Positions 27,400 to 31,414 of a DNA stretch of 64,000 nt are shown piece after piece. Location: sequence record PQ471516.1. One strand, given 5' to 3'. Made by a program: the position numbers and the translations under genes. The DNA comes from Escherichia phage Turkey5. The notes under the pieces are model-generated. The model worked only from the letters and a program-made list of their open reading frames with translations. It searched no databases and was not told where the DNA came from. The first letter of the stretch is position 1; each line of letters begins with the position of its first letter.

Positions 27400-28239
27400 A
27401 TGTCAATTAAACCCAAGCGTAAAAAGTATCTCAACAATGCTGATTTGCTTAGAGAAATTCAGAAAAGTAAAATGTCATATTGCTGGTTGTTAGACAAAAG
27501 CTACAGTATGTACGATTACATTGTTTTTGATGAATCTGAAATTACAGCAGAAATGTTGGATAAAGCTAAAGCTGCTCGTATCAAACGTCTTAACAATGAG
27601 ATGCTTGATGCAGTACGTGAAAAAGAGGGTATGAGTGCTAAGAAAGCGAAGGAATACGCAGAAGCAAACAATTTAGTACTCACTGATGTAGCCATTGATG
27701 AAGTTGTTATTCGTGTCATCACTGATGAACATATCCAACCGGATACACGAGTGAATTTTGAACCTTTTAAACATTACATTGTTGATGAAGAAGGTATCCT
27801 GTATGAAGTTGCTCGCTCTCACTGGAAAGGTGATTTAGAAGAAGGTGAGTTCTGCTTGACACATGGCAAAATCACAAATGAACTAGGTAAGATGTTCATC
27901 AAACTAGCAGAAGAAATCTCTCATAAATCAAACTATCGTAACTATACGTATCTTGATGAAATGATGGGTGATGCTAGAATACAATTAGTTAAAAACGCAC
28001 TACTCTTTAAAGAGAGTATTCTTTATAAGAAAGATAAACCAGCAGTACAGTTGAATCCTTTCTCATATTATACTTCGTTTGTCAACAACAGTTTCAGGTC
28101 AATCCTGAACAGTGAGAAGAATGTACGTAACATCCGTGATGATCTTCTTGAGATGCATGGTTTTACACCTTCCCATACACGACAAATTGAAATTGAAATG
28201 AATATGATTGAAAGGAAGAACGAAGATGGCTCTATTTGA
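27400..28239 (+). CDS. gp55: Late-transcription sigma factor gp55-like
   Basis: N-terminal KPKRKKYLNNADLL resembles T4 gp55 N-terminus (from memory); conserved 55-47-46 gene order; start moved to ATG 27400 with RBS GGAGAG (track 27349..28239). Confidence 0.55.
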   Translation: MSIKPKRKKYLNNADLLREIQKSKMSYCWLLDKSYSMYDYIVFDESEITAEMLDKAKAARIKRLNNEMLDAVREKEGMSAKKAKEYAEANNLVLTDVAIDEVVIRVITDEHIQPDTRVNFEPFKHYIVDEEGILYEVARSHWKGDLEEGEFCLTHGKITNELGKMFIKLAEEISHKSNYRNYTYLDEMMGDARIQLVKNALLFKESILYKKDKPAVQLNPFSYYTSFVNNSFRSILNSEKNVRNIRDDLLEMHGFTPSHTRQIEIEMNMIERKNEDGSI

Positions 28240-29257
28240 TAAACTGATTACATTTACTGACATTCATCTAGGATTGAAGAATAACAGTAAGCAACACAAT
28301 GAAGATTGTTTAAACTTTATCCGCTTCATGATAAAGATTGCCAAAGAAAAGGGCATTACTAAATGTGCCTTTCTTGGTGATTACTTCCATAACAGAAGTA
28401 ACATTAACATTCAAACATTGAACTATGGTTTAGAAATTCTACAATTACTAAATGACAACTTCGAAAAAACATATTTCTTAGTTGGGAACCACGATATGTA
28501 TCATAAAAACAAACGTGACATTACGAGCATCAATATGGCACAGGTTTATGAGAACATCGAGTTCATTAATGAGATTACTACAATCGATGATTGTACTTTC
28601 ATTCCATTTATGATTGAAGATGAATACAAACTACTACCACAACTTAAAAGTAAGTATGTTTTCGGACACCTTGAGTTGCCTGGATACATGCTTAACAAGA
28701 TGGTTGAAATGCCAGATCATGGCAAAGAGACAGAAGGTTCATTTAGTGGGTGTGAATATGTTTTTAGTGGACACTTTCATAAGCGTCAATCTAAAATCAC
28801 CCCTAAAGGTACTCGCGTAATTTATACTGGTAACTGTTTTCCGCATAATTTCTCTGACACTTGGGATGATGCTAGAGGTGTGATGATTTTAGAACACGGA
28901 ATGGAACCAATTTTCCAAACGTGGTCTGAAGCACCTAAGTATAGAACATTTACTCTTTCAGAATTACTAACCGACCCTAGTTTCTATCTTCAAGATAATA
29001 CTATTTCAAAGATTCAGGTTGATATCCAAATCACTACTGATGAGATTAGTTTTATCCGTGATACTTTTACTAAACTGTATAACATTCGTGAGTTTAACGT
29101 TGTTACCAGTAAGCAAAGTATTAAGGAATTACTTGAAGAAGGTGAAAGTTTTGAAAGTACTGAATCAGTTGATGATATTGTTATGCAACAAATCATGGAA
29201 ATTGATTCACCTATGTTCGATAAAAATCTCCTAATTCAAATTTATAGATCATTATAA
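28226..29257 (+). CDS. gp47: Mre11/SbcD-like recombination nuclease gp47
   Basis: Phosphoesterase motifs DIHLG, GDYFH, VGNHDM, FGHLEL, SGHFH; start at ATG 28226 (RBS AAGGAAG). Confidence 0.85.
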   Translation: MALFDKLITFTDIHLGLKNNSKQHNEDCLNFIRFMIKIAKEKGITKCAFLGDYFHNRSNINIQTLNYGLEILQLLNDNFEKTYFLVGNHDMYHKNKRDITSINMAQVYENIEFINEITTIDDCTFIPFMIEDEYKLLPQLKSKYVFGHLELPGYMLNKMVEMPDHGKETEGSFSGCEYVFSGHFHKRQSKITPKGTRVIYTGNCFPHNFSDTWDDARGVMILEHGMEPIFQTWSEAPKYRTFTLSELLTDPSFYLQDNTISKIQVDIQITTDEISFIRDTFTKLYNIREFNVVTSKQSIKELLEEGESFESTESVDDIVMQQIMEIDSPMFDKNLLIQIYRSL

Positions 29258-29266
29258 GGAAATTCT

Positions 29267-31414
29267 GTGCTAAACATTACAAGTATATCGATGAGAAACT
29301 TCTTCTCCTTTGGGAATGCACCACAAGTAATTGAAATGAATGGTGCTGATATCTCCCTAGTGCTAGGACAAAACAACGATGCAGTTATTGAAGGTGGCGA
29401 CAGTTCTGGTCGCCGTAATGGTGTAGGTAAAAGTGCCATTATACAAGGTTTAGTATATGGTTTGTTTGGCAAAAGTATTGGTAATGATATTAAAATTCCA
29501 AACTTAGTTAATAAAACTAATGCTAAGAACTGTGAAGTAATCGTTGAGTTCGAAAAGGATGGGGTAAATTATAGAGTTGAACGTGGTAGAAGTCCTACTT
29601 ACTTTAACTTTATTACTGTAGGAACTGATAATACAGTTACAGACGAATCAAGGGGTGAAAAGAAAGATACTCAAGAAGATCTAAATGAGATTTTGGGTAT
29701 TTCTCAACTCCTGTTCGAACATATTGTAGTACTAAATGCTAACGTAGAACCATTTTTGGCATTAGGTGCTCAACGTCAACGTGATATGATCGAAGAACTC
29801 CTTGGGATTACACAATTGACTGAAAAAGCTGAACTACTTAAGGATATGAACAAAGAATCCAAGCGTTTAGCAGAACAAGAGAAGTTTAAGAACGAAACAG
29901 TTGCTGCTAGTAATGAACGTATACAGAAAAGTATCGAATCATTGCAGGAACAAGCAAATAACTTCGAAATAGAGAAGTCAAAACGTGTTGAAAGTCTGGA
30001 AAGTGAGATTAGTTTGTATAGTACTGTTAACTTTGAGGATTTGTACAAAGCTGCTGCTCTTAATGAAGAAGCAATTGCTCATAACCTTAATATTGACAAT
30101 CTATCCATCCGAGTACAAGATCTGGCTTCTAAATTCGAGACATATAATGCCGATTTAGAGCGTAACAAAAGTATTCTTGCTCAAAATATCGATAATCTAA
30201 AGAACATTGATATTAATGCGGAGTTAAAGAGTCATGAAGAACTGGAAATGTGGAAACAATTAGATACTATTCTAAAAGAGAACAATAACCAGAAGCGTTT
30301 CAAAGAACAGAAGTTAAATTCATTGAAAGCTAACCTTCAAACTTATAAAACTTCGTTTAGTGCAGAAGATAACAAACGTATTGAGTTGGAAAAGAGTAAA
30401 TGTCCAACGTGTTTGACTACACTTGAACATAATGAACACACAATGTCATTGAAAGCTAAAATTCAAGAGACTATTGATTCATTACATCTGAAAATTGATG
30501 AATGTACTCGTGAAATTGAACAAGTAGAAGGTGAAATTGGTGATATTGAGATCTTTGATATGCCACCTAAGCCTATTACTCATTACAATACGTTGACTGA
30601 AGCACAAATGCATGAACATAAGCTTCAAGAGTTGCAGAAAAAGTATGATGAGGTTCCAATTAATATCTATCAAGAAGAGTTGATGAACTCATATGATACT
30701 TTGAACTCATTAATTCGTAAAGAAGTATCCGAGACATTGACTCAATCAGAAGTAAGAGAGATTGAATTGGCTTATAACTCATTAAAACAACAACTGGAAC
30801 GTGAACTAGCAACGACTAATACTTTTATTAGTCAAATTAACACGCTTACTCAAGATTCACTTGTTGCAATCGATTATTCCGATTATAATAACTTAGATAA
30901 GTTGGCTAATCACCAAGATTTCTTAGTTAAGCTGCTTCTCAATAAAGATTCATATGTTCGTAAACGTATCATTGAACAAAATATCTCATATCTGAACAAC
31001 CGTCTTCAGTACTACATCGAAATGTGTGGTTCAGAGCATAGCGTTGTGTTCCTTAACGATCTAAGCGTTGAGATTGAGAAAAGTGGTCAGTACTTTGACT
31101 ATAAACAATTAAGTCGTGGGGAAAGAACAAGGGTTAACATTGCGTTATCTTGTGCATTCCGTGATACTTATGAGTCTCTATATCAAAGTATTAACATTCT
31201 GATTATCGATGAAATGATTGACCAAGGTCTTGATTCAAGTGGTGTTCTTCGTGTGTGGTCTATCTTCCAAGATATGTCTGCTGTACGTGGTAAAAACGTA
31301 TATGCAATTTCACACCGAGAAGAGTTGCTTTCGAAGACTGAAAAAATCCTTAAGGTAGTAAAAGAATACGGTTTCAGTACTGTTGAATATACTACTCTGG
31401 ATGATGTATTCTAA
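29267..31414 (+). CDS. gp46: Rad50/SbcC-like recombination ATPase gp46
   Basis: N-terminal Walker A GRRNGVGKS, long coiled coil with CPTC zinc hook, C-terminal Walker B/D-loop ILIIDEMIDQGLD; GTG start with RBS AAGGA. Confidence 0.85.
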   Translation: MLNITSISMRNFFSFGNAPQVIEMNGADISLVLGQNNDAVIEGGDSSGRRNGVGKSAIIQGLVYGLFGKSIGNDIKIPNLVNKTNAKNCEVIVEFEKDGVNYRVERGRSPTYFNFITVGTDNTVTDESRGEKKDTQEDLNEILGISQLLFEHIVVLNANVEPFLALGAQRQRDMIEELLGITQLTEKAELLKDMNKESKRLAEQEKFKNETVAASNERIQKSIESLQEQANNFEIEKSKRVESLESEISLYSTVNFEDLYKAAALNEEAIAHNLNIDNLSIRVQDLASKFETYNADLERNKSILAQNIDNLKNIDINAELKSHEELEMWKQLDTILKENNNQKRFKEQKLNSLKANLQTYKTSFSAEDNKRIELEKSKCPTCLTTLEHNEHTMSLKAKIQETIDSLHLKIDECTREIEQVEGEIGDIEIFDMPPKPITHYNTLTEAQMHEHKLQELQKKYDEVPINIYQEELMNSYDTLNSLIRKEVSETLTQSEVREIELAYNSLKQQLERELATTNTFISQINTLTQDSLVAIDYSDYNNLDKLANHQDFLVKLLLNKDSYVRKRIIEQNISYLNNRLQYYIEMCGSEHSVVFLNDLSVEIEKSGQYFDYKQLSRGERTRVNIALSCAFRDTYESLYQSINILIIDEMIDQGLDSSGVLRVWSIFQDMSAVRGKNVYAISHREELLSKTEKILKVVKEYGFSTVEYTTLDDVF

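Follow-up and report, generated by a model that had tools for sequence, protein, structure and literature searches.

A probable single operon for the late sigma factor, gp47 and gp46 of Escherichia phage Turkey5, a Rak2-like jumbo myophage

The jumbo myophages that concern us here are covered by the group name 'Rak2-like' (PMC5259590), and Iyer et al. 2021 treat such phages as 'group 2' jumbo phages, which arose by genome expansion from T4-like ancestors (PMC7824862). A list of the T4 core genes is available (Petrov et al. 2010, PMC2993671), and in T4 the expression of gene 55 precedes replication (Geiduschek & Kassavetis, cited in PMC5259590). In CBB, a member of the group, the published gene table gives CBB_237 as gp6, 238 as gp25, 242 as gp53, 244 as a gp55-like sigma factor, 245 as gp47, 246 as gp46, 248 as endonuclease VII, 252 as gp20, 255 as gp21, 257 as gp23, 263 as gp43, 275 as gp17, 277 as gp32, 278 as uvsX and 281 as uvsW (PMC5259590). 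For CBB and GAP32 the same source describes an ATAAATA late motif and a 'divergent RpoD-like' promoter (TGAAACG plus a -10 element) upstream of replication genes and of CBB_244. In this paper we examine a stretch of 64,000 nt from Escherichia phage Turkey5 (PQ471516.1), called the window below, and within it the adjacent genes for a gp55-type late sigma factor, gp47 and gp46, which we call the triad.

We consider it highly probable (roughly 0.9) that in this jumbo myophage, of the Rak2-like group (Asteriusvirus), positions 27316-31446 form one pre-replicative operon, in which the late sigma factor is encoded together with gp47 and gp46. The reading is carried by homology, fold, gene packing and the positions of sequence motifs. 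Its elements and nearest neighbours are as follows.

27306-27313, - strand: late promoter of the T4 type, TATAAATA; it precedes the divergent gp48-like/gp53 baseplate operon by 32 nt
27316-27344, + strand: predicted pre-replicative ('middle'-type) promoter of the operon, TGGAAC-N17-TATAAT with a TG extended -10, TGCTATAAT
27353-27371, + strand: hairpin TGGTACAAGGATTGTACCA in the 5' untranslated region, 8-bp stem, between the promoter and the Shine-Dalgarno sequence
27400-28239, + strand: gp55-type late sigma factor, 279 amino acids (aa), by homology; N-terminal helix 27400-27474, 115-aa insertion 27475-27822, sigma-2 core and C-terminal helices 27823-28236
28226-29257, + strand: gp47 homologue, Mre11/SbcD nuclease subunit, 343 aa, by domain and homology
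29267-31414, + strand: gp46 homologue, Rad50/SbcC ATPase subunit, 715 aa, GTG start, by domain and homology
31421-31446, unstranded: GC-rich hairpin AAAAGGGAGC-CTTA-GCTCCCTTTT followed by TT, 10-bp stem, scored for the - strand
31432-31923, - strand: endonuclease VII (gp49) homologue, convergent with gp46 (phrog_423, E 7e-33)

The triad, its signals and its late sigma factor

The first open reading frame (ORF) of the triad begins at the ATG at 27400, which is preceded by the Shine-Dalgarno sequence GGAGAG; a start at the TTG at 27349 was rejected as an over-extension. Its product matches phrog_12791, 'sigma factor for late transcription', at E 1e-150 and the T4-type phrog_234 at E 1e-16. A profile built from 37 homologues and run against the whole PDB returned T4 gp55 as its sole match (7d7c_F, E 1e-6), the gp55 of the late-transcription complex 7d7c/7d7d, and hhalign against T4 gp55 gave a probability of 85% (E 6e-6); a PDB search with the single protein sequence gave noise only, so that the profile was required for the match. 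By tblastn the protein hits gp55 as annotated in about 490 records of cyanophages and other T4-like phages, and the annotated gp55 of Caulobacter Cr30, Stenotrophomonas and Pelagibacter phages also align with it. The ORF therefore belongs by sequence profile to the T4 gp55 family, and the fold of its sigma domain 2 is most similar to that of gp55.

The two genes that follow are assigned by domain as well as by homology. The gp47 ORF carries the Metallophos domain (PF00149, 32 bits against a cut-off of 21.5), matches the SbcD-like phrog_100 at E 8e-74 and is 29% identical to T4 gp47 over 227 aa (E 3e-21); its calcineurin-like phosphoesterase domain has motifs I-V, with DIHLG, GDYFH, GNHD, GHLEL and GHFH aligned to T4 gp47. 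The gp46 ORF carries AAA_23 (PF13476, 46.8 bits, cut-off 27), matches the SbcC-like phrog_77 at E 3e-106 and aligns with T4 gp46 at 25-34% identity across both halves of the head. It has the split ABC ATPase head, the coiled coil and the CxxC zinc hook of Rad50/SbcC proteins, and its Walker A (GRRNGVGKS), zinc hook (CPTC), signature (LSRGERTR) and Walker B (LIIDE) motifs align with those of T4.

The three genes are tightly packed. Those for sigma and gp47 overlap by 14 nt, gp46 begins 9 nt past the gp47 stop, and nothing is inserted between them; Shine-Dalgarno sites are seen within the triad, and a terminator-like site was found only as the hairpin at the end of the block and none inside it. 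The first-pass annotation had described a block at 27400-31414 with the gene order 55-47-46 of T4 and with no alpha-glucosyltransferase gene between. These coordinates are exact, 31414 being the final base of the gp46 stop, and zero genes intervene.

The sequence TGGAAC-N17-TA(T/C)AAT with a TG extended -10 occurs in three intergenic, correctly oriented copies, at 27316-27344, 46655-46683 and 59721-59749, which precede the sigma operon, the DsbA-like and DNA polymerase genes, and gp32, respectively. The other three matches to the TGGAAC-N17 motif in the window lie inside genes and are attributed to chance. This is probably the middle-promoter class of the lineage; the copy before the operon corresponds to the TGAAACG/-10 class of CBB and GAP32, and its -10 is conserved in fEgEco12 and RaK2. 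The hairpin downstream of it is kept in fEgEco12, and RaK2 has a hairpin of another sequence, TCCATATTATGGA, at the same position. At the other end, the hairpin at 31421-31446 separates the convergent gp46 and endonuclease VII genes and is probably an intrinsic terminator that works in both directions and ends the operon, its use on the + strand being suggested by a T6 run.

Late promoters of the T4 type stand on both sides of the operon. The copy at 27306-27313, about 30 nt from the operon's own promoter, is conserved as TATTTATA in fEgEco12 and RaK2, and the endonuclease VII gene, whose homologue is called gp49 in the RaK2 record and endonuclease VII in that of fEgEco12, has its own ATAAATA at 31954-31960. 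There is no overall enrichment of the motif in the window (ATAAATA, 19 copies against 25 expected; TATAAATA, 6 against 6.4), and the signal is therefore one of position and orientation and not of count. Sixteen of the 19 copies of ATAAATA (16860-58318) lie within 90 nt upstream of a start on the same strand (binomial p 4e-21, on a baseline of 3.5% of positions falling in such upstream zones). Among the remaining copies one precedes a small unlisted ORF and only one is intragenic, and none has the wrong orientation. On the face of the sequence, this distribution implies counter-selection of ATAAATA inside genes. The genes that it appears to serve encode baseplate, hub, portal, protease, scaffold, capsid, fibre and virion proteins, on both sides of the operon, and the position of TATAAATA upstream of late genes is that predicted for the cognate -10-only promoter of a gp55-family sigma factor.

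Timing, co-transcription and the use of ATAAATA are argued from T4, and the operon would then work as follows. The TGGAAC-N17-TATAAT promoter, of a class shared with the DNA polymerase and gp32 genes, would fire together with the replication genes. From a single mRNA, ending at the hairpin 31421-31446, all three cistrons would be translated. The sigma factor would bind the host RNA polymerase core and bring it to the (T)ATAAATA promoters that lie immediately ahead of structural genes, those for the baseplate to the left and those for hub, portal, protease, scaffold, capsid, fibre and virion proteins to the right, and gp46 and gp47 would resect DNA ends for recombination-dependent replication.

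Several points weigh against this reading. The promoter, the terminator and the co-transcription are deduced from DNA sequence, and the enrichment of ATAAATA near starts is helped in part by the AT-rich composition of intergenic DNA. In a direct comparison the sigma factor resembles T4 gp55 only weakly (BLASTP, 25% identity, E 8e-4), so that the assignment leans on profiles and fold. The protein also departs from the compact form of the family (about 150-190 aa, no inserted domains) and is without the C-terminal SLDFLYE clamp-binding tail of T4 gp55, its own end reading ERKNEDGSI against SLDFLYEAND in T4. Cyanophage S-SSM5 gp55 likewise has no such tail, however, which indicates that the tail is not universal in the family. 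Finally, the analysis of CBB by its authors turned up no homologue of gp33 or gp45 (PMC5259590), although gp33 orthologues and PCNA-type clamps have been reported in group 2 jumbo phages (PMC7824862), and the activation step may thus differ from that of T4.

The alternative that survives best takes these last points further and holds that this sigma factor, unlike T4 gp55, activates late promoters without the gp33/gp45 clamp pathway, the insertion giving the missing contacts. The hidden Markov model match to gp55 falls in two parts, one pairing residues 3-24 with 3-24 of gp55 and the other profile positions 148-243 with gp55 23-116, from which it follows that the extra 115 residues (aa 26-141) are an insertion after the first helix and not an N-terminal extension. 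They correspond in topology to the non-conserved region of sigma-70, after the 1.2-like helix and before region 2. The insertion is common to all Rak2-like and PA5oct-like homologues, which make up the long-form subfamily phrog_12791; it is kept in all 37 of the aligned long-form homologues, down to 41-45% identity, with D39, I41, R60, R63, R105 and K124 invariant. The structure prediction gives it, with confidence (pLDDT 94), a long helical hairpin and a small beta-sheet. The lost tail of the window sigma, the acidic-aromatic tails kept by more distant long-form homologues (IFDFGD, MFDWGEG and LFPFDD among them) and the failure to find gp33 or gp45 in CBB all agree with such a mechanism. Against it, the loss of a tail is not special, as the cyanophage gp55 shows; group 2 phages are credited with gp33 and clamps; the fEgEco12 homologue of 50694-51425 bears the annotation of a sliding clamp; and the insertion has no significant fold neighbour in the PDB. 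With tailless gp55 known in cyanophages, we regard clamp-independent activation as unlikely, if worth keeping in view, and the still more specific proposal that the long-form gp55 of Rak2-like and PA5oct-like phages is a mechanistically distinct late sigma, its insertion replacing gp33/clamp activation, as rather doubtful. If it were true, late transcription would have lost its physical link to the replication clamp, and the invariant co-transcription with Mre11/Rad50 would tie the supply of late sigma to recombination-dependent replication.

Several observations touch the same question. No tail resembling the clamp-binding one is present at the C-termini of the close enterobacterial relatives of the sigma factor (window 28200-28239). 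Acidic-aromatic tails (IFDFGD, LFDFGD, MFDWGEG, LFPFDD, ILTYDD) end 16 of the 21 more distant long-form homologues (identity of 54% or less), and these tails resemble the SLDFLYEAND of T4 gp55. A gp33-like fold of the insertion was considered and rejected, gp33 being absent from its top PDB fold matches. No gp33-like ORF was recognised in the window, and the 99-aa ORF at 46748-47047, a candidate for that role, gave no match to T4 gp33; it lies just upstream of the DNA polymerase gene, matches phrog_639 'transcriptional regulator' (E 2e-8), and has a DELGIDA/DELGVDG stretch in common with T4 DsbA, a late-transcription enhancer, to which the match is faint (E 0.06). The ORF at 50694-51425 (243 aa), after the DNA polymerase gene, is called 'sliding clamp' in the fEgEco12 annotation; it found no Pfam or PDB sequence match and falls in phrog_12062, of unknown function.

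It is very improbable that the ORF at 27400-28239 encodes some other helical DNA- or RNA polymerase-binding regulator and not a sigma factor. A Pfam search of the ORF gave no match, and the match to gp55 covers only about 120 of its 279 residues. Its N-terminal motif KPKRKKYLNNADLLREI, however, resembles KPKYNYVNNKELLQAI of T4 and KKRQHYVDNQEFLAAI of cyanophages, the pattern KxKYxNNxxLLxxI being one that it shares with T4 and cyanophage gp55, and the cognate T4-like late promoter motif stands upstream of the structural genes.

Lineage and gene order

The genome belongs to the Rak2-like jumbo phages and to Asteriusvirus, an International Committee on Taxonomy of Viruses (ICTV) genus whose species include 121Q and PBECO4, by nucleotide identity and by collinearity with the type members. 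Along the whole of a 20-kb slice (22000-42000), the identity to Escherichia phage vB_EcoM_JNE01, 355.6 kb long and classified in Asteriusvirus, is 99.1%; the slice is 81-84% identical to 121Q, PBECO4, phAPEC6, fEgEco12 and about 30 other coliphage records (121Q and PBECO4, 81.3-81.4% over 93%). In all, 67 phage records are matched by the slice, more weakly those of jumbo phages of Klebsiella, Salmonella, Erwinia, Yersinia, Cronobacter, Serratia, Pectobacterium and Xanthomonas.

Membership of the T4 superfamily is seen in the core genes for replication, recombination, late transcription and morphogenesis, the window having homologues of gp5, 6, 25, 26, 48, 53, 20, 21 and 23 and of gp17, 43, 32, 46, 47, 49, 55, rnh, uvsX, uvsY and uvsW. 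Fifty window proteins were compared by tblastn with the whole T4 genome, assembled from five pieces, and 14 of them matched, at the following places on the T4 map.

gp15-like: T4 95 kb
gp25: T4 115 kb
lysozyme domain: T4 67 kb
gp5: T4 79 kb
gp47: T4 36 kb
gp46: T4 35 kb
gp20, gp21, gp23: T4 102, 104, 106 kb
gp43: T4 29 kb
rnh: T4 150 kb
gp17: T4 97-98 kb
uvsX: T4 23 kb
uvsW: T4 113 kb

Homologues of gp6, gp53, gp48-like, gp26, gp49, gp32 and UvsY were matched by profile only. The 14 proteins are just 21-36% identical to their T4 counterparts, in agreement with the earlier call of a divergent T4-superfamily lineage, and their T4 coordinates are scattered, so that annotation by position from T4 would fail, as the first-pass annotation had warned that it often would. 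The same annotation called the gene order 'otherwise rearranged', which holds for most of the window but is overstated: the head module of portal, small ORF, structural protein, protease, scaffold and major capsid protein (36749-42835) has the collinear counterpart 20-67-68-21-22-23 in T4, and among the baseplate genes 53 > 5 > 6 stand in T4 order. The head genes were correctly said to follow a large unknown protein, and the terminase was placed beside gp32, uvsX, dexA and uvsW; here the neighbourhood stands, but a virion protein intervenes, UvsY had been overlooked and dexA is no more than plausible. The genes concerned are these.

20467-20862: gp25 homologue (phrog_43, E 2e-13; tblastn to T4 gene 25)
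26228-26542: gp53 homologue (Pfam Phage_gp53)
34507-36738: virion protein, 743 aa
36749-38485: portal gene
56674-58315: large terminase, TerL
58348-59643: virion protein
59923-60990: gp32
61066-62178: UvsX
62178-62639: UvsY (phrog_231, E 1e-25)
62687-63505: DnaQ-type exonuclease
63523 to the window end: UvsW N-terminus, the gene running off the end

That the exonuclease at 62687-63505 is dexA is plausible; by tblastn it has no detectable similarity to T4 DexA. A 2013 paper on RaK2 lists uvsY, 25 and 53 as missing from the lineage, and these core genes are detectable by profiles in the window.

The order itself has been described before. The RaK2 record of 2012 reads gp48-like, then gp55, gp47 and gp46 (RaK2_00082/83/84), then gp49 and gp26, the CBB order is that of the window, and fEgEco12 is annotated alike, so the order is typical of the lineage and not novel. 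The rearranged surroundings of the triad are the standard Rak2-like genome architecture. The first-pass annotation had named a close relative of described, identical order as the finding that would make its observation ordinary, and RaK2 (2012-13) and CBB (2017) are such relatives. Its observation was accurate and its interpretation correct, and both were already in the literature and GenBank.

A horizontal origin of the triad from a T4-like phage, by which its conservation would say nothing of ancestry, is most unlikely. T4-like and Rak2-like phages do share enterobacterial hosts, and mobile endonucleases are plentiful in both. The divergence of the triad from T4 (25-34%), however, equals that of the portal, capsid, polymerase, terminase and UvsX (21-36%); the best matches of the sigma factor outside the Rak2-like phages are those of cyanophages and of Caulobacter and Stenotrophomonas phages, not of Tevenvirinae; and the long form with its insertion is also found in PA5oct-like phages, at 41% identity and in the same context. 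The notion that the window represents an undescribed T4-superfamily lineage, its gene order itself a discovery, can be dismissed: the window appears unfamiliar from sequence alone, since the sigma ORF has no Pfam match and most genes of the region are labelled hypothetical in JNE01, but the near-identity to JNE01, the 67 matching records, the identical order in RaK2, CBB and fEgEco12 and the existence of an ICTV genus refute it.

As it was first stated, then, the finding has little importance, re-deriving the RaK2, GAP32, CBB and 121Q papers and GenBank records. The map can serve to annotate the JNE01 record, nearly all of whose genes are hypothetical, and of the leads that it gives, the terminase recoding site described below is worth the most, followed by the long-form sigma factor.

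The terminase site and other observations

In the window TerL is read and annotated as two overlapping ORFs, 56674-56994 (frame 1) and 56978-58315 (frame 2). A single extra C lies inside the Walker A codons, at 56926-56950, where the window has CAGATG-C-GGAAAAACAAC; 121Q and CBB have CAGATGGGTAAAAC at this site, read as CAG ATG GGT AAA ACN ACT GT (Q M G K T T V), and a single ORF. The candidate recoding sequence is listed here.

TerL candidate recoding sequence: CGTCAGATGCGGAAAAACAAC

The extra C is present in at least five sequence-checked genomes (the window, fEgEco12, Ecwhy_1, CMSTMSU and A4), and six further records match without an indel (same length) and have a split TerL annotation. Substitutions among the five genomes, counted by codon position, are 11/7/57 in frame 1 upstream of the C and, from the C onwards in frame 2, 1/0/6 before the annotated ATG of the second ORF and 2/1/42 after it. 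The extra C is thus the exact point at which the substitution pattern leaves frame 1 for frame 2, and the five genomes do not differ in the 21 nt around the site, so that full-length TerL appears to need +1 recoding in the P-loop, and this recoding seems to be conserved. We found no paper on the extra C or a recoding site in TerL, and the exact 24-mer with the C is absent from IMG/VR.

At the same spot, between GK and TT, JNE01 carries a 335-aa LAGLIDADG intein, and the mismatches between the window and JNE01 cluster here (6 in 16 nt, against roughly 1 per 60-100 nt elsewhere). Together these suggest that the site may be a homing-site immunity allele, for which the T4 gene 60 bypass and mobA would be an analogous case. 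A search of the fEgEco12 tRNA cluster for a quadruplet-decoding tRNA found none, only six ordinary tRNAs (Ser x2, Met, Asn, Thr x2). They include readers of the AUG, AAC and ACA codons around the site, an overlap that is probably coincidence, the RaK2 set being similar. The tRNA-Met (293117-293195 of the fEgEco12 record), of 79 nt, has an unusual geometry, the anticodon standing at position 37.

Between the endonuclease VII and gp26 hub genes there is an ORF-poor stretch of about 650 nt, 32090-32740. It has a predicted TGnTATAAT promoter (32017-32046, + strand) and a predicted terminator (32476-32495, + strand). Among Asteriusviruses the identity of the stretch is 88.7-89.6%, whereas the 20 kb around it have 81-84%; it is unannotated in most records and has a fold z-score of -2.2 with no Rfam match. 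We regard it as a candidate for a non-coding RNA of about 450 nt. Rfam and ARAGORN scans of the window gave no match, and a search inside the window for further copies of the ORF-free region 31930-32740 gave only promoter-sized matches.

A 3346-aa ORF on the minus strand (6813-16853) lies directly downstream of the gp6-like wedge gene, which is the position of gp7 in T4. An ATAAATA stands only 6 nt from the annotated start, and the JNE01 counterpart is shorter by 10 aa.

The triad compared with known systems

The closest systems are those of the Rak2-like jumbo phages (Asteriusvirus, Alcyoneusvirus RaK2, Mimasvirus CBB, GAP32, fEgEco12), in which the triad has the same order and orientation.

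Triad loci in relatives: RaK2_00082-00084; CBB_244-246; fEgEco12 g336-g338

The same divergent gp48/gp53 baseplate operon stands at the left and endonuclease VII and gp26 at the right; the portal, capsid, polymerase, terminase, gp32, UvsX and UvsW genes are placed as in the window, and the sigma factors are 67-100% identical in protein to that of the window. The differences are confined to mobile-element content. RaK2 has an additional 1-kb ORF between gp46 and endonuclease VII; JNE01 has an additional 765-nt ORF between the gp6-like and gp25 genes (JNE01 136546-137310), absent from the window, as well as the intein inside TerL; and the window has a 408-aa HNH/endonuclease ORF (42944-44170) directly after the major capsid gene, with none in fEgEco12.

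The bacterial sbcDC operon likewise has the nuclease subunit first and the ATPase second, translationally coupled, with the same phosphoesterase and ABC-ATPase/zinc-hook motifs as the gp47 and gp46 of the window. In contrast to the phage triad it has no sigma factor upstream, and the phage proteins fall in the T4 gp47/gp46 PHROG families.

In T4 the triad has the same order and the same direction of transcription, on the minus strand, its homologous proteins being 25-34% identical to those of the window, and late promoters of the TATAAATA type are a feature of both. T4 gp55, however, is 185 aa long, with the clamp-binding tail and without the insertion. Between 55 and 47, T4 has 7 ORFs in 3.1 kb (47.1, a-gt, mobB and a-gt.2-.5), and between 47 and 46 another 2 (46.1/46.2); after the triad T4 continues with 45-44-62-regA-43, whereas the triad of the window is compact and isolated between structural modules.

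The order and orientation 55 > 47 > 46 were found in 9 of the 9 lineages checked (T4, RaK2, CBB, the Asteriusviruses including fEgEco12, Callisto, S-SSM5, Cr30, Yut3 and Mosig), so that absence of the triad from most other T4-superfamily lineages is contradicted in every one of them. The PA5oct-like Callisto (Arenbergviridae) has the long-form sigma and the same divergent baseplate operon arrangement. Cyanophage S-SSM5 (Kyanoviridae) has 55, 47, one small ORF and 46, and the order is retained in Caulobacter Cr30 and in Pelagibacter Mosig (Kyanoviridae). In Stenotrophomonas Yut3 (Menderavirus) the three genes overlap and are gap-free as in the window, with 45 and 44 following as in T4. In all five of these phages the genes of the triad are adjacent or almost so. 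Since the triad is present in all nine, 55 > 47 > 46 is, as far as gene order in these genomes tells, an ancestral synteny unit of the T4 superfamily, and the a-gt/mobB cluster of T4 a later insertion; being kept in every lineage checked, the triad makes a good annotation anchor for divergent T4-like contigs. In cyanophages, Mosig and Yut3, uvsY-uvsW stands before the triad, whereas in the window it is more than 30 kb away, and the genes that flank the triad in those phages (uvsY-uvsW, 45-44) lie 19-32 kb from it in the window. The distance of uvsY-uvsW argues that the Rak2-like lineage has kept the core triad only.

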